A stretch of 64,000 nt of DNA, taken from Bilabrum cf. latius (lineage: Eukaryota). The position numbers and the translations under genes were made by a program. Positions 1 to 62,441 of this stretch are shown in pieces. Every line of letters begins with the position of its first letter. The stretch's first letter is position 1. The stretch is taken from NCBI GenBank assembly GCA_965178125.1, contig OZ237762.1, positions 806,001 through 870,000 on the forward strand. Reading direction: 5' to 3'. The notes beneath the pieces are model-generated. The model did not search any database. It worked only from the letters and a program-made list of their open reading frames with translations, and was not told the DNA's origin.

Positions 1-1143
1 CCCATGACGCAGGTCCCGTGCCCGTACCTAGGGCTCGGCGGGTCACCTGACACTGCGGAGAGAGAGGGCGGGCGAGCGAGGGGTGTGCGAGGAGCGCAGG
101 TTGGCCTCGAATGCACACGATATGCTGAATAGCACGAGCAAAACATACCAGCGTACGAAAGAGCAAGCGGGGTTGACCGCACCGATTGTGGCAAGCGAAA
201 GCTATGAGAGACAGACGAGGGAACCATGGATGGATGCGAGGAAGATCTGCGTGCTTTCGCCGCATGCCTGCCAGCCCTCACCTTTCGCAGATGCCCATGT
301 CATGCTGGCCGTGTCTAGTTCCCTGGTGTCCTTCAAGTACACTGGGTGTCCCTTTGAGTCTACCGCCCACCCGCCAAACAGGATGAGCCTGCCGTCGGGG
401 GCGACTGCGAGGCTGTGTCCGTGCCTGGCCTGGGGCGGGGTGCCCCCCACGGCGGGCTTGATCCAAGCTCGCGAAGACAGGTCGTACACCCACAGGTCAT
501 TGAAGGCCACAGAGCCGTCCCAGCCCCCAAACACGACAATCTTGTCCTCCACTGCCACCATCGCCTGTCCAAACCTGCCGAGCGGAGGGGAGGTCGCGGA
601 GGGCACGACGCTCCACGTCCACTTCTCCACGTCCAAACAGAACATATCATTGTATAATCGACCGTTCGGGCCTTTGCCCCCGAACACATAGACTCTGCGG
701 AAAGACAAGTGGAGGGCCAATGCGGCAAGTGCTGCTCGACGGACAGCTTCGAGAGACAGCCATGCCGCAGCTTTGGGCAATCCTTACTGAGTTCCTATCG
801 CTACGGCAGAATGGCCGTATCGTGGGCCTGGTGCCTGACCCCCGCACCTCGGGGAGTGCCAGCAAGTGTCGTGGATATCAATTACTTGGACATCGTTGAC
901 GTACTGAAACTTCTTGTCGAAGTATGTGCCTCCAAAAATAACAATGAGATTTCCTACGATGCAAGCTGTATGTCCGCCCCGGGCTGCTGGCGCCTTGCCG
1001 CTGATCAAGGGGCGGGACCACTCCCCAAGTGCTTCGGAATCCGGTACGCTCAAGTCCCTAACCTTGCTGAGTTTCTGCACCTTATCGGCAATCTCTGGTG
1101 GAAGCTACTACGATCCAGCTGATAAGCCGGATACCTTTGCCAT
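1..1143 (-). CDS. Kelch-repeat (Rab9 effector/RABEPK-like beta-propeller) protein, 3' end outside window
   Basis: Repeats 'ARGGHTACIVGNLIVIFGG', 'PRYGHSAVAIGTQVYVFGG', 'GRFGQAMVAVEDKIVVFGG', 'ARHGHSL..LILFGG', 'PSPRYGHG'. ATG 1143 is followed by tandem in-frame TAG TAG. GT-AG introns at 695-787 and 53-281 restore the frame. Confidence 0.88.
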
Positions 1144-1291
1144 TTTAGCAATCCTGTGGGCTGCAAATGACGCTGTTGCACTTCCTGCAACGGCTCAGTG
1201 TGCGGTTGCAACCAAATAGTGGCGCCGCGCAGTGTGGCCTTTCGACAAGTTCCGTAATGACATGTGGCAGGCAAGGCCATTCTTCGGATCC

Positions 1292-4813: not shown

Positions 4814-6076
4814 ATGATTGCCGCAGGTGGAATGTGCCTTGCAGCATGCTCATTGCTGGCATCCGCAACCATCGCTGACTTGGCGGGGCACTCGACTAGC
4901 TACCAACGTGCCAACGACACGCCGAGACGACGAAACAGACAAGTGTATCCATACCTTGCGATGGATCCCTCGCAGATTGTCTCCACCAGGCCGGTTCGTC
5001 CTGCAAGCCGCCTGGCAGAGCTATCAGGGCTGCCGTCGGACACCGAGCTTGTATCCCTTTTGTAGAGCGTGCTATCGGAACAAGAGGCAATTTAGTAGCT
5101 TGGACTTTGTCAAGCGAGGGATGCAAGGCTGATTTTGGCTGGGACGCCCAACGCAACCGTCGTAGAAGTCGGGGCCGCGTTGGGCTCGGATACTATCCTG
5201 TACGCGGCTCTAGCAGGCAAAGTGATCGCGTATGAAGCTGGACCTGCAACGGCAAACAAGCTTGTAAAAACAGTAGACGAGTTCAGAAGGCAGGCAGCAT
5301 CACGAAACATCGCAACCGGAGAAGTCCGCGTCGAATCCAAGGCCGTGAGCGACAAGACCGGCAGGACAGACCTGTTCATGGTGTGGGGGGACTCGGACCA
5401 AGCTTCTGCAAGCCAGATTGAGGGTCTTGTAGCGCATAGCACCGACCATGCCTAGGGGCAAGTTCTCGTGGAGAGCCTGCAGGACGCGATCGTGCCACAG
5501 CCTTGGTTTCTCCCAAGCAACACTACGGCGGGGGGTGCTGCTCCCAGTAGTACCAGTGGCGGTTCCAAGGGCAGCACACATCGCTCCGTGCAGGTGGACG
5601 TGGTGCGACTGGACGACGAGTTGGACGAGCGGATCGACTACCTTGAGATCGACGTGCAGGGGGCGGACTTTGCGGTGCTGAGGGGGGCTCGGCGGCTGAT
5701 CGAGCACCACGGTGTGGGGGTGATCCGTGTGGAGTACACGCCTCTGTTCCTCAGAGAGGCGGGGGAGGACCCCATCGAGATGCTGCACTGGCTTTATGAC
5801 CGAGGTTACGTATGCTTTGACACGCCAGACGACTGCGAGGGCAAGCGGACTGCGTTCAAGTGGGAGCACGCGCGGCTGTTTGCAGAGCAGCCTGGGGGGG
5901 AGTGGGGCGGGGCGGGAAGGGCGGGAACGGGGGCGAAACGGGTGGGAAATGGTATGGTGCGTGGTCCAGTTCTGTTTAAGGACCTGGAGCGTGCTCTGGG
6001 CGACGGTCAGCTGGGCGTGGAATACCACGGGCACACGTTGCCCTTTTGGACGGACTTGCTGTGCTTCCAGAATTGA
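4814..6076 (+). CDS. FkbM-family (Methyltransf_21-like) SAM methyltransferase with N-terminal signal/anchor
   Basis: 'VVEVGAALGSDT', 'KVIAYEAGP', 'VDVVRLDDEL..IDYLEIDVQGADFAVLRGA', 'VEYTP'. Three track ORFs are joined in frame by 4 TAGs; ends TGA. Confidence 0.8.
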
Positions 6077-9138: not shown

Positions 9139-9288
9139 ATTCGTAGAAGCAGATCTTGGTCCTGGATTCAGAAAATGCTAAGTTTCTAGAAAGTGTTACA
9201 TAAGGTTATATCTTTAATAGTTAACAGCGGGAGTAGACCAGACAGTGCAGTGGGTAGCAGACGGCATGCCGACTCGGCCGGACTCTTG

Positions 9289-19092: not shown

Positions 19093-22000
19093 TCACACTT
19101 CCTCAGCAGGCAACACCGACGACGAGGCATCTCCGGCGGGTGGGGAGGGGGCGGGGCTGGAAGCAGCCGCTGCCACGCTGGGCGGCGGGGGCGGCGCACC
19201 ACCACTGCCGCTCGCTTTAGGGGGCGGTGGTGGCGGCGGCAGCACGAAAGACCGCTTGGATGCAGAGAAGGACTTGAGTTCCCACACCCTGCGAGACCTC
19301 CTCCCGTGTTCCCTGTCCATGCCCATCAGGTCCTGCACCCTCGGGTTGTCCAAGGGGTTGTAGGAGGTGAGCCCGTGGAGCCAGCCGTTGGTCTGAGCCT
19401 GCGAGAAGCTCGGCAGCACGTCATGCACCTCCAGTCGCCTCCCACCGTAGGTTCCATCGTTCTCGTCCACCTTCCCCTTGCCCTTCCCGGCCTTCTGCGC
19501 GTCTTCCTGGTCCGCCCGCATTGCCAGCAGGTCGGATTGGGCCGCCGACAGCAGCGCAGCCGCGATGGGATCGTCCCTGTCCCCGCTGCAGAGACCGCAG
19601 GTGGCAAAGGCGCACACCTAGCAGCAGCACCGACACAAGGATCCAGCCGCCCACTCGAGCACCATGCCCAGGGCCACGACCACGAACAGCACCACCATGG
19701 GAACCACGTGAGGCTGGGAGAGCCTCTCGGTCACAGTCAGGACGTTCTTGTCCGCCTCCAGCTCCGGAGGCAGTCCCTGCAGCTGCTTGGCCAGTTCCTC
19801 GGCGCTCTACCTGGCCTGGTCCTGCCCCTCTGCGATCCTCAGGTCCTGTCCAAACTACTCCTCTACCCACTCGTCCGAGGAGAAGATCGTGCGGTTGCTC
19901 AGCTGCCATGCGCCCACGGCCAGGTGTGCCAGGACTGCGAGCGGCAGCCACGAGGTCAGGTGCTTGTGCAGCGTAGCGTCCTGGAAGGGGGGCGTCCTGA
20001 AGTGTCTGAGGAACAGCGCCTTATCGCTCCAGAATGTGACGAAGAAAGCGGCCGCTGCCACCACGTGCATCACTGGCATGCCTGTGGAGAACGCCAGGCA
20101 CACGTACGTGATGTTGATAAGCTCGGCATACCTCGTCTCGAACTTGAACCCGCTGCCCGTGAAGAGCGCGTCCAGCTCCCTCTGCGTGCGGGCGGCCTTG
20201 ATGTTGCCGCTGGTGCGCACGCAGCAGTAGGCCCACACCAGTGTGAGCCAGTCGTATCCGTTCATGACGATGATCTGCACGAACAGGGAGATCACCATCT
20301 GAGAGCCCACCTCGGCGTACCAAGTGGACGTGAAGTCCTTGATACCCAGCCCGCCCCAATCCAGCCCGGGAATGTACGCGTTCACCAGCGTAGCCATGTA
20401 GGCCGTGTTCACGATCTGGAACAGGGTGAGCCTAGATCCGAAGGACAGGCTCCTCGCCTCGAGGGAGTGGTGCCTCTCCCACTTGGCTAGCTTCCAGAGG
20501 CAGATCTCCAGCGCGCCATTCACGGCCACTGTCGCGAAAGCAGCCAGGATGACGATGGTCAGGGCGAGGGACTGCGCGCCCAGCCAGCCCTCGCAGAGCG
20601 CCTTTTCCTCTGAGTCCGAGAGGAGCTGCTGGGTGGGGACCAGCCTGCAGTAGCAGTGCAACATCTCGGGGTCCGCCTCTGCTTGTTCCCTGGCCACGGC
20701 GATGGGCTCGCCGGTCTTTGCATCCACGGGGCAGTCCCTCTCCCCTCCCTCGTTCTGCGCCTGCTCCTGCTAGATCGAGGCCCAGAAGGTTAGCGCGCTG
20801 CATGCAAGCACCACCACGAGAGCGACAAGGCTGGTGACCGACTGCAGACAGCACCGGGTGCAGGGGCTGTACCCGATGTTCTGCCACTGGATCGTCGAAG
20901 GTTCGCTGGCGCGGGTCACCAACATGGACGCTGGCTCGTCGCTCTCGGACCCCTTGGCGCTGGGTGCGCCCACCAGGCCAGTGCCCAGACTAGCCTCCCG
21001 GGCTACAGAGCCGTGATGGCCAGTGGGCGAATGCAGCGGGACGGGCGCAGCGGCGGCGAGGCTCGACTCCACGCCCACCTCGTCCAGCTCCACTGCCCCT
21101 GTCTCGCGGTCGGAGTCGCTGTTCTCTGCAGTCCCCTTCCCACCCTAGGGCCCATCACCCTTGCTGGCTGTTCCCTGCCGCCTCTTTCCCGCGGCAGAGG
21201 CCCCCGCCTGCTGGAAGGCACCGGCGGCATGCAGAGCAGCCGCGCTGAGCCCGTGGTCTCCCTCCAGCTGGGCTCGGGCCACGTCTGCGTGCCCAGTCCC
21301 TCCGCTCCCTGTCTCCTCCTTGCCCTCCCCCGGACCAACACTGCTTCCTGCAGCCGACGGGGAAAACCCTTCTGCTCCTGAACCCTTCGATCCCCCCGCC
21401 TCTGCTCCTGAACCCTTCGATTCCCCCGCCTCTGCATCCCCAGCTGGAGTCTCCCCCTCGTCGCCGTCGGCACCGAAGTCCAGATCCGCCTGCATGCCCC
21501 CATCCTCCAGCCACTCCTCCACGCCCACCACCCCCCCCTGCTCTGGCCTGCCCTCGGGCACCCTCAGGTGGGCAGAGGCCTGGTACAGGGAACTGATGGC
21601 CCGGGCTGCCCTGCGCAGGCGGGCCCCCATCGCTGCTTTCTTGGCGCTGCGGATGGCCCCGATCCCCAGCTTGGACTCTCTCGTGAGCCGCAGGTCGGTT
21701 GGAAGGCAGCACCACCGCGCGGCATCACCGTTGCCGTAGGCCCTCAGCACGCGAGCCGCGTCTTCAGCTCTCTCGAACGTGATGAAAGCGGCCAGCACGC
21801 CGCTCATGGGTCGCACAGCCTTGGCCCTGGTGGTTGCCTCCACCACCTTTGCCTTGATGAGGTCGCGCTTCCTCTCCAACTCATGCAGGCGGGCGTCTGC
21901 CTCCTTCCTCGCACGGGGCAGCTTGCCCCGCTCGGCCCCGTGCGCCGCCTCCAGCTACCTCACCCTTTGGTCTACCGCAGCCCATGCATTGTCCAGCCTT

Positions 22001-23173
22001 TTGATCAGTGTCCCCCGCATCATGCACACCTCGAACAGCTCCTCGCAGTCTTCCGCCAGGAACACCTCCGCCACTTTCCCTTCGTCCTTGGGCCCGGGTG
22101 CGACCTCGGGGGTCTCCACGGGCCCGCAGCAGGGGCTCCTGCTCCTGGCCTCCTGCAGGGCCTTGTGTTCCCTGGCCTCCTACCCCTCCCTGCGCGCTAG
22201 CTGCTCAAAGTGTGCCCTCAGCTCCCACTCCGTCGCATCGGGGGGAAGGCTCTCCACCTTGAGGGTGTAGTCCCGGGCCGACAGGAATCCACCGGTGGAC
22301 TGCACCTCCTCCAGCTGCACGCAGGCACGCATCCAGCAGGTGGCCATGAGGAACAAGAGCGTGCCCAGCAGGTCCATGGCCACAACCACCTGCGCCACCT
22401 AGCTCTTGTCCATCGAGCACTGCTCAGGCGTGCCATCACAGAACGGGATCAGGACGCTCGTCACGTTGCGCTCGTCGCCTAAGTTCCCCACAGAGACGGA
22501 ATCGAGCTCAACGCTCTCCCCGGCGCCTTGCGTCACGGCGCCCGTGCCGGCAGCTGCCAGAACGAAAACGGGGATCGACAGTAGCGTCCAAATCGCGAAC
22601 ACGGTGAAGCCCCACTTGTAAAACTTCCACAGGACGCTCAGTCCGGCACCGTACCTCGCAAAATCGCTCGAGGTGCGCTATCCGCAGCAAAAAATAGCAG
22701 AGATGAGCCAGTACAAGCTGTTCTCATCGTCAGTCCCGCAAAAGAGTCCTGTTGAGGATGAGCAGATGGGCCAAGGCACAGTGTCGCCATTCGGAAGTAC
22801 CTGTCGAGGGTGACTGCGCACATCAAACGAGAGTGGCGAACGCAACTCGGTTAGGCTGGCGCTCGAGAGGCAATGGATTACGTAGAAAGAAACTGCTTGC
22901 ACCAACGGCGCTTCTCCATCAAGTGCTTCCAGCCCCGACATTAGCTATCCCTACACAACAATTATTTCACATATCCCACAGTAAATCCACGAGCTGCATG
23001 GCCTCCTCAAGCGAGGGCTCCTTGTGCTGCTTCTTCTGTTTCGAAGACGGGTGCAACCCTGCCAGCGCCGTAGAGCCCTTCGGACTTGCTGTTGTCAGGT
23101 GCAGCCGCCTCGTTCGTGTCGACTCCGAGCGAAGCGGATTATTTGTTGCAAGAGGCGAAAGCGCATTGTCCAT
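19093..23173 (-). CDS. OSCA/TMEM63 (CSC1)-like calcium-permeable mechanosensitive channel
   Basis: 'YGAGLSVLWKFYKW', 'SARDYTLKVESLP', 'AAFITFERAEDA', 'VTRASEPSTIQWQN', 'FKFETRYAELINITYVCLAFSTGMP..FWSDKALFLRHFRTPP'. About 9 in-frame TAGs join seven track ORFs; ends TGA. Probable intron 22814-22970; 5' end uncertain. Confidence 0.8.
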
Positions 23174-25909: not shown

Positions 25910-25966
<57 letters not shown>

Positions 25967-29171: not shown

Positions 29172-30461
29172 ATGGCTGCCGCTGGTGGTGCTGCTTCAGG
29201 AGTTGCGACGCCTGACTGTATTATTCTAGATAATGGTACTGGTTTCGTGAAGGCAGGGTACGCTGGAGACAATATTCCGAGGCATGTCTTCCCATCGATG
29301 GTTGGGCGGCCGACCTTGCGTGCTGAGGAAGACGTGATCGGGGACGTAGAGCTCAAGGTATGCGCATTGATTGTGCAACCTCCAGTAATTCTCTCTCTTA
29401 TTTCACGCATCGCTATTCGTGCATCGACTTACCAGTGCTCGCAGGATGTGATGGTTGGTGACGAGGCCTCTGCAGCACGGCGCGCCCTAGAAATCACTTA
29501 CCCAATGGAAGAGGGCAAGATTAAGAACTGGGATGACATGGAGATACTGTGGGACTACGCTTTCAATGACAGACTGCAAACAGAGACAAAAGGGAAAAGG
29601 ATCGTGTTGACTGAGCCGCCGGGCAACCCACGAGCGAGCAGGGCCAAAGTGTTGCAGTACATGTTTGAGAAGTACGAGATGGACTCTGTTTCTTTGAATG
29701 TACAAGCCATGCTGACGCTGTATGGTATTGGATCTGTGACCGGTCTAGTCGTTGACAGCGGGGACGGCGTCACCCACATTGTTTGTGTGGCTGACGGCTA
29801 TGTTCCAAAACACCTCGTAACTCGGCTGGATGTTGCTGGCCGCCATGTCACAGAGTACTTGGCAAAGCTCATGCTCCTTAGAGGGTACGCTTTCAATTCT
29901 ACGGCTGACTTTGCTACAGTTCAGGAGATCAAGGAGAAGTACTGCTACGTTGCAAAAGACCCTGCAGAAGAGCGGAAACTGGCCCTCGACACGACAGTCT
30001 TGTTGGAGAAATTCAAACTTCCGGACGGCCAGGATATCAAGATCGAAAGGGAGAGGTTTGAGGCCCCTGAAGCCCTTTTCAACCCATCGCTCATCGATGT
30101 GGAAAGACCTGGTTTAAGTGAGATGGTCTTCTAGACGATTTAGAAGGCTGACATTGATCAGCGTCGTCTGTACTACCAGAACATTGTTCTTTCTGGTGGA
30201 TCGACCATGTACCCCGGGTTGCCTACACGCCTCGAACACGACATGGTGAAGATGTACTCAGATCGAATCGCTAAAGGGAATGCGAGAATCGTCGAAGATA
30301 TGGCTATCACGATCAAAGATCCTCCGAAGCGTAAGCACATCGTGTTCAATGGAGCTGCCCTTGTAGGTGACCTCCTTAAGAGTAGCCCTGAGTTTTGGAT
30401 AACAAAGGCACAATATGAGGAGGAGGGGGAGCGGGTACTAGACAAGTATCGCACACTATGA
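29172..30461 (+). CDS. ARP2: Actin-related protein 2 (Arp2/3 complex)
   Basis: '[27 protein letters not shown]', 'QAMLTLY', '[10 protein letters not shown]', '[22 protein letters not shown]', '[10 protein letters not shown]', '[18 protein letters not shown]', '[10 protein letters not shown]'. 87-nt intron 29358-29444; TAGs at 30132 and 30141; ends TGA. Confidence 0.96.
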
Positions 30462-34000: not shown

Positions 34001-35686
34001 TGATACCATCCTGGCGAGCCGCTGCATGGTGGTACACCCACTGGTTGCGTGCTTTACTGCGGCTGGTGCGAGTCTTGACCGTACCTGCGCACACACCGCA
34101 CTGGCACGAGTGCTAGCGGCGCTAGCGGGATACTGGTGGAAACCCACTGCAGTGGAGGCGAGCAGCGGCCAGGCGGCCTCGAGCTACTCAACGAGAGTCC
34201 CGGCTTGACCTGCCAGGCGGGCTCTGGCGCGGTGCGGCGCTGCAGCAGCAGCGAGAAGGTTGTAAGATGCTCGCACGGCGTCCATATCAAAATGTGGGTG
34301 CCGTGTGGAATCTCGTCTGGGTCGCGCGTGGGCTGTGCGAGCGGAGTCCATGGCAGCATCCTCATGGTGGTTCTCATCGATAGACACTCGCAATCGCGGA
34401 ATAGACCGAGGTAGGCTCTCAATCGATAGGCGTATGCCCTTGAGCAGAGTGGTGCTTGGGAGGCGCGAATGCCGGTTCCCGCTGGTTGCAACGGCAGCAG
34501 TTCGACGGACTAGCGGAAGGCTAGCCCCTGCAGCATCTCGGCTGGTCGTAGGGCGAGGCCCCTCCGGAGCCTTGTCACCTTCATAGTTGGTATCGCACAC
34601 CTGGAGCTGTCCCATGGCGCTCAGCAATTCTGCATGAGCGCGGTCCTCGGCTGACACGTCTGCCGTCGCTGTGCCCCCCGCGGCCAACCCACCGACGATT
34701 CGCAGGTCTTCCAGCCCGCTGCAGTGGGCTGCCAAGATTCGGACGTTTAGCTCTGTCCATGGTACTACGTGCTTTGGCAAAGGCGCATCACCGCCGGCAC
34801 CTGAAGCTGCCCCCGCGTCTGAGTGCCTCGTCAGGTCAAGCGATCGAAGTAGCTGCTCTACATGCTCACGCGCATGCTCAAAGTCTCGACATTGGCTTCG
34901 AATGCTATTTCGGGCACTCGAAGGCAGCAGATAAACACTTGATAGCTAGGTTTGGGTTGCTCCACATCTGGCTAGGCTTGCTGTTGCAAGCAAAATAGGA
35001 GGAAGCCGTACTCCACTTGGACGGCTCTGCTAGACCACACGATGGCTTACAGCGTCATTCTGACTGAATTTGCACTGGAGTAGCGCAGCAGAACCTTGCT
35101 GCGCACCTATTGTGCGACCGAACTACTGCCATCGCTAAGAAATGGTTGAAATGACACGGTCTGAAGATCGCCAGACTTGGCCTTGGTCGTCCACAATCTC
35201 GAGGTCTATCTAGTCGCAGTCCAGCCAAACTGCGAGACTGCGTCGCAAACAGTCAAATGTGTGCTAAGAGCTTATCAAAGCTGACACCTGGGGTCTACCT
35301 GGGCGTTCAATCAAAATGCTGACTGCGCACTCTGTAGTTTCAGCAAGCAAAACAGAATCGTGCTCGGATAGCCATCCTGGCAACACGCGGGGTCGATCAC
35401 CCGGATGTACACTCGGAGACTCAAGCTAATAAGGAATTATTTCAAACAGCAAAGGTGCCAGGCCCGGTCCCAACTATTCGCCTATTTTGAGCATAGCACT
35501 TTCTTCGGAGTCGCGAGGAGATAGAAACACGCTTCCAATGCAATGAGTCTTTCCATCCAGATGACTTCGGACGACAGGTATTTTTGTGAACACATCACCG
35601 CGCTCCATATTAGACTGACCTGAACGGGAAAAGTAAGCTCCCAGGTTCGCAATGCAGCTCACACGAGTCGGGTTCAGTGCATTCAT
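31085..35686 (-). CDS. Large (~1530 aa) hypothetical protein, invisible under the standard code
   Basis: One continuous frame through track ORFs 35474-35704, 34184-34780, 33965-34147, 33704-33904, 32906-33550, 32549-32863, 32105-32362 and 31259-31495. About 28 TAGs, no TAA/TGA; ends 'GKCCLWCCY' TGA. Confidence 0.75.
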
Positions 35687-35776
35687 CTTCAGTATTGTGT
35701 ACACTCGTCATACTCTGCTGCAGCTTCTCTGCAGTAACAAGCGACATCAGGGGAGTTGTACAGCAACTCTTGTGGT

Positions 35777-36881
35777 ATGGAGGAAGGAGGTATTGTAGGT
35801 GCAGTGCTCAAGGCAGATAAATGTCGTGACTGGGTAATTGGCGATAGTGATCTCTCCCAGACGCCGTCATCACGAGATGGAATACCGAGATAGCTTGAGG
35901 ACGAAATGAGGCGTAGTAGCTGTGAATTCATCGCAAGGCTGGTCGGGAGGGCGCTACGAAGTAGGGACTTGCAGTAAGTTGGATTTTCTTCTCCGCTCTC
36001 ACAGGGCATGTGGCAGCGGGAATCATTCGCACAACAAGAAGGAAAACACGTCTTTTCCCACCGCAGAAGGCAATATCTAGTAGCATCAACCGCAATGGTA
36101 TTATTTCATCGCTTCTACTGCTCTCACTCTTTTGGAAGGCGCGATAGGGATGTGAGCCGTGGCCAGTGTGCAGCAGAAACTGGCTCTGCACGGTGCGGGT
36201 GCGAGAAGACCATTGTAGGCTTTTACTTGTATTCTACGTTCGCAGGTTATTGCCACTGCATGCGTATTGGTAGCATGCAAGGTTCGAGAATGTCCTGTGA
36301 AGGTCATGTTGCTCGCCGCAAACGCTGAAGCCATCCGCCAGAGAAAGCAGAATGTGAACGGGGACGAGTTCAAGGCATCGCTGGCTCGAATTGTTGCCGG
36401 CGAACGAGACGTCCTTACTACCCTTCGGTACAATATAATGCCTCAGGTTGCCCTTGGGCTCATCGCGGGAGTAGCTGATTTAGTTGTTCGAGATTCGGTT
36501 GCACGGGCGGCGGTGCGCGCATCCGGCAAGTCGGTGCAGTGTCTGGAGCCGCTCGCGTCTCGAACAGCGCTAGAGATGTACTCGACACCGCTGTCTCTGA
36601 CGCACACGGCCAGCGAGATTGCATACGCTGCTATCCACATGGTGTTTCTGCAGCTGAGGTAGAGGCTGCCTGAGCATACCCTCCCACCGCTTGCGTTCCC
36701 CAGCCGGATCGCTTGCGCGTGCAAGCGGTTCATTGACAGGCAGGTGGATATGTGCATGAAGCCCCGCGTGAAACCCAAGTCTAGTCCTACTAGTACTGCT
36801 GCATGTGCGAGTGGGAAAGACGCTGAGGCATAGGCAGCGACCAGCTTGAAGGGGACAGGATCCGGAGCGGGTCCACGGTAA
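35777..36881 (+). CDS. Transcriptional cyclin (cyclin T/K/L family)
   Basis: 'QTPSSRDGIPR*LEDEMRRSSCEFI', 'ASTAMVLFHRFY', 'VIATACVLVACKVRECP', 'ERDVLTTLRYN'. Introns 35974-36066 and 36152-36245; 3 TAGs; ends TAA. Confidence 0.82.
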
Positions 36882-36992: not shown

Positions 36993-39878
36993 TCACTTAG
37001 CTCGATTCACCACGGTCCTCGTCCCGGAACGCGCGTTACGCCAAAGCGATGCTCATCCCCCAACACGAAGGTGGTATTCGCAAGCAGCCCACCACCGTCG
37101 AAGTCGTTCGTAAACTGCCTGCCCTACGATTCCGGCGGGTACTCGTTGCTTGAGGAGCGCAACTGTGCGATGTAGCTTCCTGGCCACAGCCCGTAGTACC
37201 GAAGCCGCTCGTCATGGAAGGCCAGATCATGGTACCATGCGGTCGCGTTCACACTCACTTCTTTCCCAGGCGCCACCGGTCCAGACTTGTTGAACGCCAC
37301 CAGGTGGGAAAATGGCCTCGCGACGGGAATGCTGCCATCCATTGGGTCGATGGCGTATACCTGCATCACGAATCGACCCGTTCGCTGTCCCTCGTTCCGG
37401 ACGACTGCTCCGAAGGAAACCTCGGGAGGGCCGCCGGGCTCCAGTGTTACCACGTTTGCGTGGAAATCTTTTACGGAGAAGTTGGTGTAGCTTAGTCCGT
37501 GACCCAACGGAAACAGGGGACTAGAAAGCATTTGCTTCGGACCAGAAGTAGGCCAGTACGGGCGCGACTTACGATAGATCGGAGCGCTCGGATCAACGAA
37601 GTCAGCAGACACGAGCATGCCAGCATTCGCACCCCCTGAACCTACCATCCCCACGGATCGCGGCCACTGGGACGAGAGGCGCCCGGATGCGTCCACGCTG
37701 CCGACCAGAATGTCGGCAAGTGCCTCGCCGCCCAGCGAGCCAGGGCGGCCCGCGTACACAACGGCGTCGAATGCATCGAGCACCTCGTTTCGATTCGATG
37801 CCCCGAAAGTCATCGGTCTGCCTCCCACGATCACTAGAACCAGCGTCGAGTTTTCCCCGGCTCCTTCTGAGTTGCGCGTGTGCGCGGCCTGAGCCACTGC
37901 CTCGAGCAGCTGCAGCTAGAGCCCCGGAGGATCAAGGTCCTGCACGTCCCCGCCTTCGCTGCAGGACGCAGTGTAGGCACCCAGGTCACCAATGAATATG
38001 ATGGAGACACGCGACCGGCGCGCTGCCGCCTGGGCCGCGGGGATCATCGAATCGTTCCACGCGTTCGGGCACTTGGGACTGCCAGCGTGCCAAGACCTGC
38101 AGACCGCCACGTCCATCCACAGCGGGTCCGGAGAGTGCACGCCAGGCACGTGCTGGACGACTGCCGCTTGTATTCCCGACACATCGAACGCATCAGCCCA
38201 TCCCACGCCCCCGCACCGCTGCGTGCTATCTCCAAAGCACGTGGTCGCGCATTCACCCAACCCCTCGGCAGCAGGCATGTGCTCGCTGCACAGGCACTCC
38301 GAGCCGTTCGAGGCTCCGGCGTACCGATATTGGCCTGCTTTGCCTGCGGCCATGCACAGACCCACGCACTTGTCGGGAGTTGCATCAACAAAGTGACCCA
38401 CCGACAGCTCGAACGACGCGGCAGCACGGCACCCCAATGCCACCGTAGCATTGGCTGTTGACCGGGTGCGAAGCTTGATTCGAAGAGCACTGGTAGCAGT
38501 GGGCATCAGCATGTGCAGCGGTCCAGACTGGTAGCTCGGGTTACCTAGCATTGCCTACCGAGCAGCACATGAACTAGATCCATCCTTGAAGCCTTCCGGC
38601 ACGGGGTCCATGATCCAAGGGGAAGGCCCGCAGTCAGCGAACGGACCGATGGTGCTCACAACCGCACCCTACTGCGCGAGAGATTCGGCATCAAGAGGCA
38701 GCGCCCCACCTCTGTTCTGGAGTACCACAATGCCTTCAGCTGCCGCCTGGCGGGCAACGTTCCTGCTGCGGTCATCATTCAGGCTCACCGCGAGGTCCTC
38801 GGAAGTGTACGGCTGATCCAGCAGGCCCGCCCTGATCTTGAGCTTGAGAGCGCGAAGCACGGACCGATCCACGTCTTGCTCGTCGATCTGCCCCTCCTGC
38901 AGCGCCTCCAGTAAGCTGCTCCGCGTGAATACGCGGTGGTTTACATCCACGCAATTGGCCCTCATGGTGCGGCCAATGGCCTGGGTTGCATTACGAGCGA
39001 CCCGAAACAGGACCAGGTTGTGCACGTCCCCGCCGTCGCTGATCGCCATGCCATCCCCGAAGCCCAGCTCTACTCGTAACGAATCGTTGCAGTGCCAGGC
39101 ACTTGAATGGGCTGGCACCCCATCGATGGCAGGGTGGTTGAGCATAACCGCAGCACCACCAGAGTGAGCGAAGGCGCGCCATGGCCGATACCACAACTCT
39201 AAGAGCTCGCGCGGCGATGCTTGTACGTTCCCAGCATTCTGTCCACCCGCCGCATCAGCGTACCCGCCGAAGTGCTTAGCTAGAGCCACGATGCTTGTAG
39301 TGAAGTTACCAAGATAGCGGTCGGCACCGGCAGGGCCAACAGTTCCCTGAGCTCCAGCAGTCGCAGCAGCTACAAATGAAGATGCTAAGGCAGGGTCCGA
39401 AGCGAATCCCTCTGGGTGGCGGCCAAATCGAGCGTCTCGATACATGTTCGGAGACGGTGTCCAGCCTACTGTCACGCCGCAAGCTCTCGCATCGCGTGCG
39501 ATGATCGAAAACACTTCTTTAACCAGGTCTGCATTCCAAGTCTGCCCCATTGAAACCCCCATTGGCATCACAACCCCCGCTGGACAGCCCTAATGCAGCG
39601 ATTCGTGATTGAAAGCTACCGGAATCCCTAGCCTACTCTCATTCGAAAGCAGCCATTCTCTTTGAATGCTATTCGACAGCGAAGCATTGTTCATGTCATA
39701 TAAGCTCACGAATGCTCTCGGAAGGGAGTCCGATGGTAATCCTATTTCTCGTAGTTTCTCGGAGACCGTCATTCGGCTTCTGCACGGGGAGTCGGGCGTC
39801 CTGGTAAGGTGCTCCAAGTGCATGAGCAATGACCAATACGCATGACAGAGTCGTAGAGTGCCAGCCTATTTCATGCAT
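36993..39878 (-). CDS. GH3 beta-glucosidase/xylosidase with inserted WSC domain and Fn3-like C-terminus; apparent frameshift near 39779
   Basis: 'SRLGIPV..HESLH', 'TWNADLV', 'RDARFGRHPEGFASDP', 'LAKHFGGY', nucleophile region 'ISDGGD', 'AAEGIVVLQN', 'GGEALADILVG..SGRL', 'PLFPLGHGLSYTNF'. 5 TAGs; ends TGA. Confidence 0.88.
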
Positions 39879-39995: not shown

Positions 39996-41306
39996 ATGAG
40001 TGCACTCTCAGACATGAATGCTACGGAAGATACATACGGCACAAAATACTCCCGCGTTGGCGAGTCCTTGACCGCAACAGCCCAAGCAACCTCATCAGGC
40101 TGCTTGGGAGTGCAACTTGAGTGCACGAGATGCTGTGTTGTGTCTGCCAGCGGGGTCGTTGCGGCTACTCTAGTTATTGGCATTGTCGCAGGTGTTCTCG
40201 TTAGTCGATCGAATAAGCAAAACGGTTCTCATTCCGACGACAGCCGCGATTTTAAGGTAGAGCTGCCACTTGTGACAAATACGTGGCCGTGGAAAGAAGC
40301 TACAGCAGCCGGCCATGCCGTCGTGTATATGCAATCGCCATCTGACAACGCTACCGAGCGTACTCTGCGGAGGCTCGATGGATTGGTTGCGTGCTTGTAG
40401 AGTTGCGAGGATCGCATGTGCGACCACACTGTTGGCAAGGACGGCTCGCCCGATTCAACTGGTGCAGTCAGCCTCGATGCCATGGTTTTTGACGGTCCCA
40501 CATGGGACTCTGGTGGGGTGGCGTATTTGCAGCACTCCGACCACGCGGCGGCAGTCGCGAGAGATGTTATGGTGTACACGAGCGAGAGCATTCTGTCTGG
40601 GGGCGGTGCGGATCGTTTTGCCGCGCTCATGGGCTACCCGCGGCGAAATCTGACGGGGTAGTGGGCGAGACAGGCCCACACACAATGGTTGGATGGCGGA
40701 TGCTAGCCCAACTTTTGGCGAAACGTGGGAGCAAGCGCGGGGGGGTGCGGTCCGTATACCCCTGAGCCCGGCGCACTGCCAGGGGGCGACTACCGGCTGC
40801 CAGCGAGCGCCCAAGAGGTGGACGCGATGGGAAGTCCCAAGGGGTCCGCCGGGGTACCCATCAGTAGGATTCGAGACACGATATCGGCCGTGGTCGTAGA
40901 TGAACAGGGCGACATCAGCGTGGGAACCTCGTCGAACGGGGCCAGGAATAAGATTGCGGGCAGGGTGGGCGATGCACCCATCGCGGGCGCTGGCGCCTAC
41001 GTCGACAACGATGTGGGGGCAGCTGTTGCAACGGGGGATGGAGACGTCATGATGCGTTTCTCACCGGCTGCCCTAGCGGTGGAAAAGATGAGAGCAGGTG
41101 CCAGCGCGACGGCCGCCTGCTCGGAGGCTTTGGGCCGGATCGGCTCCGTGTTCCCGTCATTCACCGGCGGCATGGTGTGCTACAACAAGGCCAGGCAAAC
41201 TGTTGGCGGTGCGTCGTTCGGGTGGGGATTTACGTTTGCCTACCAGGGCGGCAACGAGACAGCCCAAGTAGCGACACCACCCCGCGTGGACAAAACCTAG
41301 CCATAA
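39996..41306 (+). CDS. AGA: Glycosylasparaginase (aspartylglucosaminidase, Ntn-hydrolase) with N-terminal TM anchor
   Basis: 'LPLVTNTWPW', 'CEDRMCDHTVGKDGSPD..LDAMVFDG', 'C*PNFWRNV', autocleavage site 'DTI', 'GTSSNGARNKIAGRVGDAPIAGAGAY', 'ATGDGDVMMRF'. TAGs at 40398, 40659, 40704 and 41298; ends TAA. Confidence 0.93.
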
Positions 41307-46761: not shown

Positions 46762-47104
46762 TGTGTGGATTATACAAAAGTTCTTGCAGTTTGTTCGCAG
46801 TTATTTAAAACGGCATGCCAAGCGTGATAGATTGGTTCAGCACAGGCTTGTGCTTCGCGGTCGAATGCACAGAAACAGTGCTATCGGCAAGTCCAAAATG
46901 TTCCGAGTTGGAGTCCATGACCAAACAAACCCGTCATTGGCTATACTAGTAGACAAGGATTCCATGATGTGGTAAACGAACGTGTATACTCGGTTCGATA
47001 TATGCTGGCTCGTCAGCCGTATGGCGTCCTGTCGACAATCGTCTGTCCAGTCAAGTACATCTATCATGATTTCAGAAAACCCAGCTAATCTGAACACAGG
47101 CGCT

Positions 47105-47603
47105 TTACTCGCGCTCTCCGAAGTACTCTCCGCGGTTCGAGTCCCTGCTGTCCTCGCGGCTACGCGTGAGGGGTGCCCCGTCAGGTCCGCTAACGTTCGT
47201 CGCCGTGATGCCACGATCCGACTCAGTGGGCTCAAACTCAACAACCTCGCCATCGCGAAGCATTCTGAATCCATCAGCCTGGATTGCGGTGTGATGCACA
47301 AACACTGCGGACAATAAAAAGCACGGCAGCTTCGACATCACTTCAGTTCAGTACATCTCATTACCGAATCATTGCGATGGCGAATGACAAAAAACACATA
47401 CCTTCCTAGTCGACCGCTTCATCGGGGATGATAAAGCCGTACCCGCGCTTCAGGTTGTACCACTTGACTGTGCCCTTCTGTACCTTGCCGATCTCCAAAG
47501 CCATTGACGCAGCGCTTCCGTGCAGCCCGCGTGCCGCTACACTCTGCGCAGACGATCGCAAAACTTGCATGCATACTCGCTGCATTGCACCGGTACGCAT
47601 CAT
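47105..47603 (-). CDS. Cold-shock-domain protein with a mitochondrial-presequence-like N-terminus
   Basis: 'KGTVKWYNLKRGYGFIIPDEAVD*EVFVHHTAIQADGFRMLRDGEVVEF..ATNVSGPDG'. Intron 47305-47401; TAG 47406-47408 lies between RNP1 and RNP2; ends TAA. Confidence 0.9.
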
Positions 47604-47767
47604 CTTGATAAGCTGTGATAGAGTGACGCGGGGGAAAGTCCGAATTATGTTCGCAGCAAAACGTCTCGTTATAATGGCATTTCGAAGTCCGGCCAAACTG
47701 CCCTGAACAAGTTGGCAGTACTCTCCTCGTGAACCGTACCTTCCTGCTTCGTTGTCTATTTTGGCAT

Positions 47768-53529: not shown

Positions 53530-56500
53530 TCATTCAAGCCTCTTCCGTTCGCTTCTTCTTCGCCACGAGCAGCACGCATCCCGCGCGTGCTGGAGGGCCC
53601 TCTCGCCGCAACACAATACGTCAATCCCTGCTCCCACGATGTTTCCGCATCGCCCCATGCATCGCCCCAGGTTTCCAGGAAGCCGCAACGCACCGGCTGC
53701 CTGCGCCAAGGACAGGGCGAGGAACGCCATGGCCAGCAGGCCCAACGTGAGGTACGGCAGAATCGCGCGCTCACCCTCCGCTACCCCAATCCAGTCCATG
53801 AGTCTCCCTAGAGCCCCTGGCAGAGGCGAAGCGCCCGCCTCCTGCGTGCCGTCAGCTCGCATTGAGACAGCCACTACCGCTGGTGCTCGCCTGCTGAACT
53901 CGCACCAGGGCCCGTACCAGTCCGCATGGCAGACGCATGTACCACTAGTAGCCCCCTTCTGCCCCCTGCAAGAGCCTTGGTTATTGAATGATCCGCAGTG
54001 AGAGTCAGCACCGCACATGAAAGCCTCAGCCGAGTCCCTCCAACCGCCTGGGTCGGCCTGTGAGGCAGCACCATCAGCTCGCAAAGCAGTCGCATCAACC
54101 GTAGGCCAGCTGCTTGCTCGAGTCTGGTCTCCCCAATCTAGATGCGCCGGAACTGCAGCGCCACCGCTGCTGACAGGTCCCGAAGCTCGCAATGCACCGT
54201 CCTTGTCGGCGGCAGCCGAGTACACTGCCCTCAGCGCACCCACAATTTCGCCTCCGGCTGCCGAGGCTGAGTCAGCGCTGCCGCCAACAAGCACGTCAGC
54301 CGGGCCCCCCTCAGCCTGCATGCTCAACCTAGCTTGCTACACAGCGCGCTTCCACCCTTGCCACGCCGGGACATCCCACACCCCGCTCGAGAGGGCGGCA
54401 CTCCCCTGCAGGGCCGAGGCTGCACGGCGCCCTGCCCTTGACAAGGCGCCTTCTGCAGACAGTACTAGAGGGCGGTCCTGCTCTAGCAGTTGCTCCCAGC
54501 TGGCGAGATACGTAGCCAGCCTGTGCGGGTGTTGCATGGAGTCGCACCGGCGCGGAAACTCCCCAACAAAGGATCCACCGGCATCCAAGCACGCTCGCTC
54601 GAGTCCAGAAGAAGACGTCGGCACAGCCCCCCCTGCGTTGATGCTTGTGGCTTCCAGCAGCGAGGCAGAACCTTCCGGCACAGCCAGCGTCTCTGCCATG
54701 TCGTCCAATTCCGATCTGGCTCCCTTGGCCCCGGCCGGCCGCTGCTCCGAAAGTCGAATGCGCCTCCCGACCAGCAGCGCGGCGGCAGATAGCTGATACT
54801 CTGCTGCAGCAAGCGTGGCAAACGCTCGAGCTGCACGCCGCTCCCAGGCGAGCTCCCTCCCATCCCACATATCGTCCCTCCCACGCCGCCTGCCCTTCGC
54901 CACAGGGCCCTCCAACCGGGTGCTGGTACTTGTTGGCGTCTGGATACCGTGCCATCGGCCAGGCCTCTCTCCAGCTGTCCCCAGCCCAAACGCCACATGT
55001 GCCGCTGACAATGCTACGTCACCCCCTTCCGGTGGCCACAACAGCTCCATGTCTCCTCTTCGCCTGTGCACGGACACCATCTGCATCAAGCGTGCAGCGG
55101 ACATTGGGCACAAATCAACGTCGGTCCGACCCATGCTCGAATGCCGCTGCAGTCGAGCGTGCATCAGCCGGTTGAATTCTCTAGCCTGCTCTGGCTGATG
55201 AGTCCCAGGCGCATTCCACGACTCCATCAAGGCCAAGATATCCTTCGGGAGCCAGTGCGAAGACGATGACATGGATAGAGCAGCCCTGATGGCGCCTCGC
55301 TTCATGGCGCCGTCCGAACCAGCGTGCTTGCCTTTCGTTCGGTGGGGGTGCAGGTTGGGGCTCATGTTCACCTCCAGCAGCCACGGTGTGCCGGAGCGGT
55401 CGTACACGAAATCAAACCGCAGCAGCTCGAAAGTGGACGATGGGCTCAGTCTGTCGATGTCTCCCCTCCCCTCGCTTGCCAGGCCAAGGAGCTCATCGAG
55501 ACGGCTGCCATTCACAACTTGTCCGGCCCGCCCAGCCGACATGACTGGCAGCAGTGCGCGCTCCAAGTCGCTATCGGAGAGAGTCAGTACCTCTGAAAGG
55601 CCCTCGGTACCTTTCTGGCTCCTTTGCGGGTGCACAGACTGCCTCTCTTTCTGCATCCTGGAGATTCGCTCCCACTCCTGCTCGCCGATGATGGAACGCA
55701 CGGCACTCTCGCCGCTGCTGGCGCCCGCAGCGGCTTGTTGCGCCGCCCGGAGCACCTTTGCATCCCCAAGAACAGCCGCCCCGGCCCTTCGCATCGCAGG
55801 CAATGCTGACAGGAGCGCGGTGCGGATCGCCGACCTGGTCCGCTGCCAGGCACGCACCGGGTCCAGCCCCAAGCGGGCCATGGCAGCCAGCAGCGCGCGT
55901 CTGTTGCTCGTGCCTTCATCTTCATCGCCTGGAACGCGCGAATAGAACTATCCTGTGGATGGTACGGACCAGGCCGGACGGTAGTCGTCTATGACGTATG
56001 CGTACTTGTGCGACTCGCGAGTCAGGTTGCCCGGCGTGGGTTCAGAGCACACGCGGACCAGAATGTTGCGATATGTGTATGCCACCAGTGGACGAGTAGA
56101 AAGTATGAGCACATACACCCCGATATCGAATTTATGCCCCGACAGCAGCAGCGGCTCGACGTACTTGCTCGCCATCGAGTTCGGGGGCAGCGAGTGAACC
56201 CAGGACCCTGGCGGGGAAGACTCCCTGCCTTTAGAGTCGCGGTCATCATTGGAAAGCGGGCTTGATGCGCTGCGTGTCTCCCCCTCTGGGCTGTCAGTAG
56301 CCCCCACGACCTGGTTGGCATCCAGCAGCACGATCCCGCGGTGGTCCCTGCTCTTGACGAGCCAACGCAGGCCGGACTTGGCGTCGCCGGGGACACCCAG
56401 AGCCAGGCCTTTCGAGGCCCCATCCGCGTCTCCATACGAGTGTTTGAGGGCCTATGAGCGCGCCCGCTGCCTCTCAAGGAATATCGCGGCGGTGAGCTCC

Positions 56501-57108
56501 GCAGCGCGCTCGGGAAGCAGGAAGTGACTCGGCGCCGGATTTCGCAGCAACCCCGTGCGCTGCATCCAAACGTGGGAATGTCCCAAAAACTGCCATGGGT
56601 CTACATTGCCAGCATTACTGCCACGATTCAACTTCTCAACGGTGTGCATCCATTGCAGCTGACTGTTTGCAGCCGCTGCAGCACCACTGAGCAGCGTCGA
56701 AGGCAATCGCGATTTTTTCGTGATCCCGAAATTGCCAGGTATATGGTTGACTCGCTGCGAGTTTCTGATTCTGCCAATAAGATCCCATCTGGGGTACCGG
56801 AAAGAGTACAAGAGATCCCAGTCAGCATTTTGTGCGTTGGGCCCGTAAGCGTCTTTAACTTCAGGATCGGACATGTCGCCAGCCTATTTGGCAACCCATG
56901 GGTCGTGCTCAAGGAATCCCAGCCATGAAAGTGCGTTTAAGGGGGTCCTTAAGTGGTACCTCTTCCATTCTGGCATCCGGAAGTACGTCTGCTTCCAACT
57001 ATCCCCAACGGGTTGTAGACCAGAAATCTTCTCCCGATCATGAGATTCGCCGCGGCAAGTCATGAAATGCACAAGAACGCACCATGGAATCTATGATGTA
57101 AGCACCAT
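53530..57108 (-). CDS. Tubulin-tyrosine-ligase-like (TTLL) ATP-grasp protein with C-terminal EGF-like domain and TM helix
   Basis: 'DWDLLYS', 'QRVNHIPG..ITKK', 'WLVKSRDHRGI', 'KYVEPLLLSGHKFDIGVYV', 'YVIDDY', 'FELLRFDFVYD..PWLLEVNMSPNL'; EGF 'C..QGSC..CVCHADWYGPWCE'. Five track ORFs are joined by TAGs; ends TGA. Confidence 0.85.
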
Positions 57109-60070: not shown

Positions 60071-60180
60071 CCGTGTGCCAGCGGGCAAGATCACTTCTCT
60101 CTCTCCCTTTGCGCGGCGCAAGCGAGATTCTTGTGCAAGCATTTGAAGTCAGTTACAGCGACTATTTGATTCTGTATCAC

Positions 60181-62441
60181 ATGTCACAAGAACATAAAAC
60201 AAATCAACCAAGCCAAGAAGTGGTTGAGCTGTTGCAAAGGAACTTCTCAAGCAAGGAAGAGGACAAACTCGAACGGCAGCAAATAGACGTGAGCTGCCGT
60301 GACACCCCGGCAGCGACTAGACTGGTTTCGCGAATATAGCGATGTGGTACGATGTTTATCGTTTTATATCGCAGTAGCTGCGATCCTTGCGTGCATCCAC
60401 GCCAACCGGTGTTTGGCGATAGTGGGTTCGCGATGCAGTGTAGAGTCGAGAGTAGGCCAGCGGCATGAGGCAAACAGATGGATGGCCACAGCACAATGGT
60501 ACTGATACACAGTCGCCAGTGGCAGAGTAGCCTGCTACTTCACGAAAAGCACGTGGCGCCAGGTCGTTCGTTGGCCAGAGCCTATATGCTCAGCAGCAAC
60601 GTCTTGTGGCGTCTCCAGTGCGAAATCGCGACTCTACTTTGCCTTTCGTCCCGAGTCGGATCGACTAGTACCATGTATCAATGGGTATAGCTGCTCCTTC
60701 CAGGTCCCTTCATAGCCCGAAGCGCCCGAAAACGAGATGGCTAACGTCTTACGCAGCCAGCGTTGCTGAGGGCAGTTAGCAGTACCCTCCTTGTACACCG
60801 CTAGCCCATGGCTCCACTTTACCGTCTGGCCAAGACGAATCCAGTGAGTTAAGGCCTCTATAGTCTCAGAGAGATCTTGCGGCTGCTGGGTCTGCGTCGA
60901 CTGGAGACCCGTGGTTTGAAGCTGTCACCTTGCTAGAAGAAGCGCCTGAACCGGACCAGGCTCCGGCGCGCGCATCCACGCCTGATCACAAATAGGACGC
61001 CAAGGCGACACTTAGTCATGCATAGCCGTTGTTTAACGATTTGCCCGGCCTGTTGGCGGTGAGTACTGATGGCGCGCACAGTCAGGATGACGCGGAGGTG
61101 ATCGATGGCATTCGGCGGATCGGAGAGACTGCCCGACGGATCGGAGAGTCCATGGTGTATGCAGCACCTCTTGCGAGGTCTGGTGGTGCAACAGCAGAGT
61201 TTCTACCAAACATCTCTGCCTCAGGAGCAGGTGCGACGAGGCAACCTGATTGCGTGGCCGGCGATGCTGGCATGGTTGAGAGCCGTGGCGTTGGCGGCAA
61301 TGACAGCCCATTCCTGGTCGTGCAAGGGCCAGCAACCGCTGCACTTCGCATGTCACGCTCCTGCTCGGATCGAATCATGGCAGCAGGGCATCGCGAACGC
61401 CCGCCGCATTTCGATTCACTTTCTCCGCCTACGGGTGACTCGCTGTCCAGCAGAACCAAAGTGTCTAGCTTGAGTAGAGCAGCAGCGCTCAGCCGTGCGT
61501 AGGTTATAATTTCATCGACTCGCAGAGAGCTGCACAGTATTAAGGATAGGTTCACAAAAATGGTATCGGAGATGCAAGCAACCTTAGTGCGCTGCAAAGT
61601 TGCGCTTCCGACCCCGCCGGCACGAGTTGAGCTGGTGCACACCAGACTCCCCCATGTCCCGCAGTGGGTCCCGCCTTACATTTAGGAGTTGAACGAAGCG
61701 GAAGCAGGGGTATCTCACGGGGCAACTTTTGACAAGTGGATGAGCGGTCTACATTCCGCTGGCCCACTCGTTGTCTTACCTACTTGTTCACTGCTTGCAG
61801 CCAACGGCTTCAGTTCAGGTGCGGTACTTGGCAGGATTCTACTAGCTGCTGTAGATCGGCATGGGTCACTTGCTGTATCTGCGTCTCATTTCGGCCCATC
61901 GCGCATAGTTTCGCTAGCGGATCCCCCCGCCGGGGGAATCGGAGAGCGAATAGTAACAGATTCTGCTTCACTGCGTGGGTGCCTGTAGGCCATGCAGCGC
62001 TCTTTGCACCAGCTTCTCCCTGACCAGGCTGGTTGGGTGCTTTTAAAGCTGCATACTGTGTCTTCGGAGCGTGTCGGAAGTGCCCCTGGCTTTCCACCGC
62101 TTAGCCTGCTTGTCCCAGCCAGCCTTAGCTCGGTGGGTACCTGTGCCTGGGTACACGAGTGTCATATCCGAATCGCACGGTTTATTTCTGGTCAATGCAG
62201 TCAAATTGGCAGTTTGGAGGTTTAGCTGAGCCAGGTCTTCTCAGACCAGTCCCTGAAAAGAGGTTGCGGACCCAGAGTGACCATTTGCGTTACAGCAGAC
62301 ATTGAGTCTGGAATCTAGTATGAGATCGACTCGATGAGACTCTGGCTCCCGATGGTCGCTAGCTCATATGGACTGGTGAGTAAACCGCGTACAGCAAGGA
62401 GATCTGTCAGGCGAGGATCGGGGTTGCAGCGAATGACATGA
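60181..62441 (+). CDS. Telomere-adjacent hypothetical protein
   Basis: ATG 60181, intron 60289-60374, then one frame open with many TAGs through track ORFs 61029, 61689 and 61992 to TGA 62439. A further intron from the GTGAG near 62376 could move the end to ~62630. Confidence 0.6.

Follow-up and report, generated by a model that had tools for sequence, protein, structure and literature searches.

TAG as a probable glutamine codon in nuclear-type genes of Bilabrum cf. latius

The DNA analysed here is a 64-kb stretch of contig OZ237762.1 (assembly GCA_965178125.1, labelled Bilabrum cf. latius), referred to below as the window. It carries nuclear-type eukaryotic genes on both strands, as judged from Pfam matches and homology, and most of these genes contain the triplet TAG within their reading frames. 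It is very probable that UAG is an ordinary sense codon of this GC-rich, intron-poor eukaryote, most likely for glutamine, and that UGA, the main stop, and UAA still terminate translation. The gene-bearing part of the window (positions 1..62441, both strands) holds 20 supported open reading frames (ORFs), which are bounded by TAA and TGA by construction. These ORFs contain 119 in-frame TAGs among 15,816 codons (7.5 per 1000). At least one TAG is present in 18 of the 20, and the ORFs of a mitochondrial carrier and a DnaJ protein have none. Sixteen ORFs end with TGA and four with TAA. TAG makes up about 17% of the glutamine-type codons of the window. The original prediction, made from the letters of the window, was that TAG has been reassigned from stop to sense, with glutamine as its most likely meaning. 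It is now backed by mutually independent lines of evidence, which are the continuity of protein domains across TAGs, the presence of TAGs in spliced contigs, the TAGs of a syntenic relative, and an excess over chance of glutamine (Q) opposite TAG in aligned proteins.

TAG was entered as the letter X in the Pfam searches, and models were matched across TAGs in Arp2 (Actin), GH3 N and C, Asparaginase_2, FkbM, BRCT, and TTL. The coverage of the models was extensive, with residues 6-408 of 410 for Actin, 1-200 of 200 for GH3_C, 1-172 of 173 for FkbM, and 38-281 of 309 for Asparaginase_2. Among the 3,392 codons matched to Pfam models there are 12 TAGs, which span six gene families, and neither TAA nor TGA occurs. 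The other two frames of the same stretches (6,750 codons) contain 45 TAGs, 35 TAAs, and 140 TGAs. When TAG is read as sense, the number of stop-to-stop ORFs of at least 1000 amino acids in the six frames increases from one to seven. It remains one when TAA or TGA is read as sense, TGA being the commonest stop triplet. The full coverage of domains with read-through of TAG alone, together with the lack of any gain in long ORFs from TAA, indicates that TAA and TGA remain stops. Seven positions at which in-frame TAGs had originally been noted (30132, 30141, 40704, 47798, and 16768, and 37916 and 47406 on the minus strand) all carry TAG in the frame of the flanking homology. The accompanying remark that the interruptions lack splice signals holds at the TAGs. 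It does not extend to the genes as a whole, which carry ordinary introns elsewhere; the introns of the window are short (87-128 nt) and of the GT..AG type.

Relatives of the organism were sought by an Arp2 scan of JGI metagenome contigs. The 12.5-kb metagenome contig L001, to which contigs L002 and L003 are 100% identical, is syntenic with positions 27.4-43.9 kb of the window. It carries the gene upstream of Arp2, Arp2 itself, a long ORF, the gene of a cyclin-like protein, that of an aspartylglucosaminidase-type protein (AGA), and a 787-codon ORF. Arp2 of L001 is 93% identical to that of the window in protein but only about 72% identical in DNA, and the G+C content of the contig is 51%. Among the 3,240 codons of the L001 orthologues are 41 in-frame TAGs. 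Most of them are at positions other than those in the window, and one TAG position is common to the two. Four of the orthologues end with TGA and one with TAA, and TAG constitutes 28% of the glutamine-type codons. Database fragments from close relatives provide additional information. Arp2 fragment P0093 (96% identical) ends exactly at the first Arp2 TAG of the window, at 30132, and fragment P0221 (93% identical) ends exactly before the TAG at 55948-55950 in a gene of the tubulin-tyrosine-ligase (TTL) family. P0218, a 96% identical relative of the OSCA/RSN1-like channel encoded in the window, continues through three window TAGs. The in-frame TAGs of the L001 orthologues and the ends of P0093 and P0221 at window TAGs indicate, at the level of sequence comparison, that at least three related taxa have the trait in common: the organism of the window, a 96%-identical relative represented by transcript fragments, and a relative with 51% G+C that occurs in three metagenomes.

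The residues opposite TAGs in aligned proteins point to glutamine as the encoded amino acid. In relatives whose respective protein is 93-96% identical to that of the window, five of five window TAGs, two in Arp2 and three in the OSCA-like channel, correspond to Q. The Arp2 sequence P0092/L001 has Q, encoded by CAA, at both TAG sites, and P0218 has Q opposite all three OSCA TAGs, at 22399, 22180, and 21955. The ends of fragments P0218, P0219, P0223, and P0245 were left out of these counts, as each may be either a TAG codon or the end of a contig; the window residues at these ends are E, Q, A, and Q. A broader tally was obtained from six local alignments of window and L001 orthologues (28-93% identity), in which a TAG in either species was counted and a site was considered well aligned if its 12 neighbours were at least 40% identical. 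The 19 well-aligned sites have Q in eight cases, S in three, R and L in two each, and T, G, D, and A in one each, compared with an expectation of 0.5 for Q (binomial p 1.8e-6). Over all 65 sites, Q occurs 13 times, S 11 times, R, A, and D six times each, T four times, G and L three times each, and other residues at most twice. The likelihood calculated with substitution frequencies from the same alignments is highest for Q at all four thresholds, with a margin of 10.9-16.5 log units over the next residue.

Columns of more distant homologues are informative where the residue is conserved. The TAG at 37916 in a GH3 glycosidase gene had been proposed to replace a family glutamine, and its column contains Q in 39 of the 42 aligned homologues. 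This alignment comprises 42 of 91 matches; P0036-P0070 and P0073, mostly near-identical Bifidobacterium sequences, and the 13 weakest matches, P0079-P0091, were omitted. A similar proposal for the AGA TAG at 40704 agrees with the L001 orthologue, which has Q (CAG) at that position and S opposite the TAGs at 40398 and 40659. Glutamine had also been proposed for both Arp2 TAGs, by reference to the family motif TIQAADID. The proposal stands for the second, at 30141, where Q is found in 95 of 120 homologues. It fails for the first, at 30132, where the family residue is D, E, or N, though the closest relative has Q. No residue was assigned to the RING TAG at 47798, for which glutamine had been proposed as well. 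Taken over the six orthologue pairs and the homologue columns, the residues aligned to TAG are not mostly those of another amino acid. TAG is, on these alignments, most likely a codon for glutamine.

The letters of the window were compared with those of public sequencing runs. The stretch 28500-38400 was found in seven runs, and none of those listed is registered as RNA. Four of the runs (X1, X5, X6, and X7, from three studies) were compared over 28500-48400 in the form of contigs, which lose rare variants. There are 0 differing letters and 0 indels among the four runs over these 19.9 kb. Run X1 is colinear with the window DNA. Eight canonical GT..AG or CT..AC joints are present in X5-X7 but absent from X1, and the depth of X5-X7 varies by gene. 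Because of these joints, X5-X7 are taken to contain spliced transcripts. All 49 in-frame TAGs of supported ORFs in 28500-48400 are on listed pieces of X5-X7, with 0 differences. Five of the 49, two in Arp2, two in the cyclin-like gene, and one in a cold-shock-domain gene, belong to genes with GT..AG joints in X5-X7, and for Arp2 and the cold-shock gene the listed record itself crosses the joint. Record 14 of X6 and record 21 of X7 both contain the two Arp2 TAGs with 0 differences. The cold-shock TAG is kept in the spliced record 13 of X5 (depth 942) and in record 19 of X6, next to the CT..AC joint 47304>47402. TAG thus stays in the spliced X5-X7 contigs with 0 differences, as anticipated in the original prediction. 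Its concern that the reads might show CAG at these sites is answered by the contigs of the four runs, which show TAG. Assembly error, editing, or splicing as the source of the TAGs is contradicted at the contig level.

Several observations weigh against reading TAG as a glutamine codon with UAA and UGA as the only stops. When alignment quality is disregarded, S is nearly as frequent as Q opposite the 65 TAGs (11 versus 13). The GH3 TAG at 39590 (residue 119) aligns with the invariant Gly of the motif E-x-L-H-G, which is present in 42 of 42 homologues and in all three PDB alignments shown. A one-residue insertion (H-Q-G) is possible at this site, where X is a free wildcard and Gly follows directly. 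More distant OSCA relatives (62-78% identity) cover six TAG positions, with E at four of them, Q at one, and D at one; P0217 (66%) has E at three, P0219 (78%) has E, and P0220 (62%) has Q and D. The column of the first Arp2 TAG is variable and uninformative (D 56, E 33, N 21, and Q 1 of 120). So is that of the TTL TAG, where 122 of 145 homologues align (K 33, P 17, E, R, and D 11 each, Q 3). A bacterial AGA, in PDB alignments that cover two variable TAG positions only, has R and A. The evidence from the runs is at the contig level, at which rare variants are dropped and low-level editing could escape. The labelling of X5-X7 as RNA is a guess that the spliced joints alone support. ORFs delimited by TAA and TGA are such that genes terminated by TAG would be missed.

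The residue counts leave some room for TAG to be a sense codon for another amino acid, of which Glu is the most plausible, followed by Ser. Such a reading would draw on the four E among the six OSCA positions of the 62-78% identical relatives and on Ser being the second commonest partner of TAG, at 11 of all 65 and three of the 19 well-aligned sites. UAG-to-Glu and UAG-to-Ser codes are known in other eukaryotes, according to PMC11687900. However, E is opposite TAG at none of the 19 well-aligned sites and at one of all 65 window/L001 sites, and the lead of Q in log-likelihood over the next residue holds at every threshold. Furthermore, the closest relatives have Q at every one of the five comparable positions, and TAG coincides with two columns of conserved Q. 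Replacement of Q by E or S is common in evolution, and a single base distinguishes TAG from TCG. Another amino acid in place of glutamine is therefore considered highly improbable. It is also conceivable that TAG has a dual meaning, glutamine inside genes and a stop signal for some genes when close to the 3' end of the mRNA, similar to the ambiguous codes of Condylostoma and karyorelict ciliates (bioRxiv 10.1101/2022.04.12.488043). The delimitation of ORFs by TAA and TGA would conceal this, and the AGA TAG at 41298 is positioned two codons before the TAA, the sole TAG within two codons of an ORF end. Nevertheless, all 20 ORFs reach a TGA or TAA near the ends of their homologues or orthologues, as exemplified by Arp2, and the presence of dedicated UAA and UGA stops means that a third is not needed. 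A second, terminating role of TAG is considered very unlikely.

The remaining explanation involves no change of the code, but lesions in pseudogenes, C read as T in the consensus, programmed readthrough, or removal or editing of TAG in the RNA. Each of these is a standard source of isolated in-frame stops. The TAGs of the window are not isolated, as 119 of them are distributed over 18 of 20 ORFs, in comparison to 0 in-frame TAAs or TGAs within domains. The same letters are present in four runs from three studies, spliced contigs of expressed genes, such as the cold-shock contig with a depth of 942, retain their TAGs, and the relative whose DNA is only about 72% identical has TAGs at different positions. 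The density of 7.5 TAGs per 1000 codons, the up to 28 TAGs in a gene, the positions within domains, and a tandem TAG-TAG pair in the FkbM-type methyltransferase gene, already cited in the original prediction and confirmed at 5093-5098, are features unlike programmed readthrough. An unchanged code can be practically dismissed as the explanation of the TAGs.

Translation of UAG as glutamine would employ a tRNA-Gln(CUA) derived from tRNA-Gln(CUG), judging from other lineages in which UAG was reassigned to Gln. Its CUA anticodon would pair with UAG and not with UAA. By analogy to the same lineages, the release factor eRF1 would have lost or weakened its recognition of UAG. TAG codons may arise mainly from CAG by C-to-T changes at Gln-tolerant sites. 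The predicted tRNA and the changed eRF1 follow from two considerations in PMC5304391: CUA is the sole possible anticodon if UAG is sense and UAA remains a stop, and tRNA-Gln(CUA) and altered eRF1 are described from other UAG-to-Gln organisms. The tRNA scan of the window, L001-L003, and L006 identified no tRNA, the Rfam scan of the window gave no match, and eRF1 is not among the genes of the 64-kb window.

The variant in which UAG alone is reassigned to glutamine formerly appeared as NCBI table 15. Ciliates differ from the window in their telomere repeats and in their AT-rich chromosomes, which are often gene-sized; the window is a GC-rich 64-kb multi-gene stretch with a (TTAGGG)n-type array. 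UAG-only reassignment to glutamine is known from Iotanema spirale, Protocruzia tuzeti, and two phyllopharyngean lineages (PMC11687900). The latter three resemble the window in that UAG was changed to Gln without UAA. The same holds for Iotanema spirale, a member of Fornicata, in which UAG encodes Gln and UAA and UGA are stops; tRNA-Gln(CUA) was predicted but not found there, according to PMC5304391. UAA is the predominant stop of Iotanema in that text, whereas TGA ends 16 of 20 genes of the window. The window, compared with Iotanema by description only, differs also in its G+C content of 60%, in its genes for a mitochondrial carrier, Arp2, and a tubulin ligase, and in its Arp2, which is nearest to stramenopile and unnamed sequences. 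Known UAG-to-Gln lineages are made less likely by the TTAGGG-type array, the GC-rich multi-gene contig, and the predominance of TGA as the stop.

Codes in which both UAG and UAA (UAR) specify Gln, the type of NCBI table 6, have evolved in many ciliates, hexamitid diplomonads, Streblomastix, ulvophyte green algae, and Amoeboaphelidium (PMC11687900). They share with the window Gln at UAG, presumably by means of a mutated tRNA-Gln. In contrast to these codes, TAA is not a sense codon in the window, since it is found at 0 of 3,392 domain codons, ends four of 20 genes, and provides no gain in long ORFs. UAG alone was reassigned to other residues in the rhizarian exLh (Leu) and in Scotinosphaera (Ser), as described in PMC5304391 and PMC11687900. 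The meanings of UAG and UAA are uncoupled in both organisms, as they are in the window. Unlike them, the window favours Gln, with Q at eight, S at three, and L at two of the 19 well-aligned sites.

A search of the full-text literature and of a review of stramenopiles, which did not extend to subscription journals and supplements, found the UAG-to-Gln code reported neither from a stramenopile nor from a further new lineage. A description of the code of this organism may exist or be in preparation, as the 2025 runs belong to three studies. The window probably represents a new lineage that carries the known UAG-only-to-Gln variant. The case for an independent origin of this variant in an unsampled deep or fast-evolving lineage of at least three taxa, possibly allied to stramenopiles and outside oomycetes and ochrophytes, is about evenly balanced. 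If true, this would be the first UAG-only-to-Gln code in a GC-rich genome whose main stop is UGA. Nuclear reassignment of stop codons is rare outside ciliates, and a change of UAG without UAA is rarer still. The lineage could reveal the changes in tRNA-Gln(CUA) and eRF1, which would be directly readable because genome and RNA data exist. A contiguous genome with expression data, and two or more relatives at different distances, would make it possible to date the change of the code. The spread of TAG codons, which already constitute 17% and 28% of the Gln-type codons in two taxa, could also be traced. Annotation of the genome or of environmental relatives with the standard code truncates most genes, and this is visible in P0093, P0218, and P0221, database fragments with a start or an end at a TAG.

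The placement of the lineage is based on Arp2. The best named matches of the window Arp2 are from stramenopiles, with about 60% identity: Chromulina (via a EukProt label) and the oomycetes Globisporangium and Phytophthora. These are followed by sequences from Fungi and Amoebozoa with 56-57% identity, and no named ciliate is among the best 120 matches. A quick maximum-likelihood tree was calculated from 40 rows, comprising the window, two relatives, and 18 named and 19 unnamed matches, with 81 of the 120 matches omitted. The three related taxa form a clade with a support of 100 on a long branch (0.59). The clade is sister to an unnamed sequence (support 96) and is positioned outside the clade of oomycetes and ochrophytes. 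The lineage may be allied to stramenopiles, outside oomycetes and ochrophytes on the Arp2 tree. The labels bicosoecid and stramenopile, offered in the original prediction, were dropped as conclusions, since the tree joins the lineage to no named group.

The products of the window include a Kelch protein, a synoviolin-type RING ligase, an FkbM methyltransferase, a BRCT protein, an OSCA/RSN1-like channel, a 5'-nucleotidase, Arp2, a cyclin-like protein, and a GH3 glycosidase with a WSC insert. Aspartylglucosaminidase, a mitochondrial carrier, and DnaJ, VTT-domain, tubulin-tyrosine-ligase family, and cold-shock-domain proteins are also encoded, and several long ORFs belong to no family. The last exon of Arp2 (29443..30461, plus strand; Pfam Actin E 4e-91, PDB Arp2 E 2e-137) contains TAGs at 30132-30134 and 30141-30143 and ends with a TGA that coincides with the C-terminus of the family. 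The preceding intron, 29356-29442, is removed in X5, X6, and X7 at the GT..AG joint 29355>29443. Upstream of Arp2 is an expressed gene on the minus strand (28500-29036), in which X5, X6, and X7 have a 99-nt CT..AC intron at 28788-28886. Its ORF at 27383-28792 (minus strand) matches no Pfam family and has an orthologue in L001. The 11.9-kb contig L004 contains at 8585-9715 an actin-like ORF of 376 residues that is 35% identical to the window Arp2; the remaining ORFs of this contig are prokaryotic-looking and closely packed. The L004 ORF may be an archaeal homologue of actin and has no bearing on the TAG finding.

The last exon of the cyclin-like gene (36246..36881, plus strand; Pfam Cyclin_N) contains TAGs at 36660 and 36831 and ends with TAA. 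Joints 35973>36067 and 36151>36246 belong to this gene, which is represented by X6 record 15 and X7 record 22, and its L001 orthologue has TAG opposite Q of the window at two sites. The first coding exon of the highly expressed cold-shock-domain gene (47403..47489, minus strand; Pfam CSD) is adjacent to the intron 47305-47401 and has its TAG, 47406-47408, one codon ahead of the exon end. An ORF of 1540 codons without a Pfam family (31085..35707, minus strand) has 28 in-frame TAGs, all of which are within X5 record 9 (31141-35637) with 0 differences. Its L001 orthologue has 24 TAGs, whose positions mostly differ. The OSCA/RSN1_7TM-like membrane protein, identified by Pfam (19093..23094, minus strand), has nine in-frame TAGs after the first ATG, and the PDB search with it gave 0 matches. 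The gene of the tubulin-tyrosine-ligase family (53530..57108, minus strand; Pfam TTL E 1.2e-24) has five, of which 55948-55950 is within the TTL domain. The FkbM-type methyltransferase gene (4814..6076, plus strand; Pfam E 7.1e-18) has four, including the tandem pair and the domain-internal TAG at 5453.

The GH3 beta-glucosidase-like gene (37007..39772, minus strand) is matched by the Pfam families GH3 N, GH3 C, WSC, and Fn3-like, and the WSC domain is inserted inside the GH3 C-domain. Five in-frame TAGs, including 37916-37918 and 39590-39592, follow the likely start ATG at 39772. A sixth TAG of the frame, at 39866, is located after the first ATG of the frame (39874) and upstream of the likely start. 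Record 10 of X5 covers the GH3 stretch 36918-39886 with 0 differences. The gene is positioned between the cyclin-like and AGA genes in the window and has no counterpart in L001 8596-10107; the gap between cyclin and AGA is 1.5 kb in L001 versus 3.7 kb in the window. The best matches of the GH3 protein are about 30-34% identical, and every named one is bacterial. The gene may be a lineage-specific acquisition.

The AGA gene (Asparaginase_2, 39996..41306, plus strand; Pfam E 6.8e-52) ends with TAA. Its in-frame TAGs at 40398, 40659, 40704, and 41298 are all on X5 or X7 pieces with 0 differences. A 63-letter contig that is present in X1 only joins 39833 to 41786, skipping 1,952 bases with CA..TG ends and with three other letters in between. 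X1 has loose ends at 39776 and 41816, and its word depth falls from 26.7 to 21.4 to 17.8 across 39804-41816. The joint could reflect a repeat in the contig graph, or a structural variant or haplotype from which the AGA gene is missing. It has sides of 30 letters and was classed with such features, not as an intron.

The BRCT gene contains a run of Gly-Ala dipeptides (GAGAGA...) of more than 100 residues at approximately 17400-17700. Close to the end of the window, at 62680-63025, there is a (GGTTAG)x57.5 array with 97% matches, a permutation of the TTAGGG telomere repeat. About 60 bases after this array begins a 155-bp satellite of 5.9 copies with 100% matches (63087-64000), which continues to the end of the window. 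The array could be telomeric repeats in an interstitial position, or else the end of a chromosome to which a satellite is joined.

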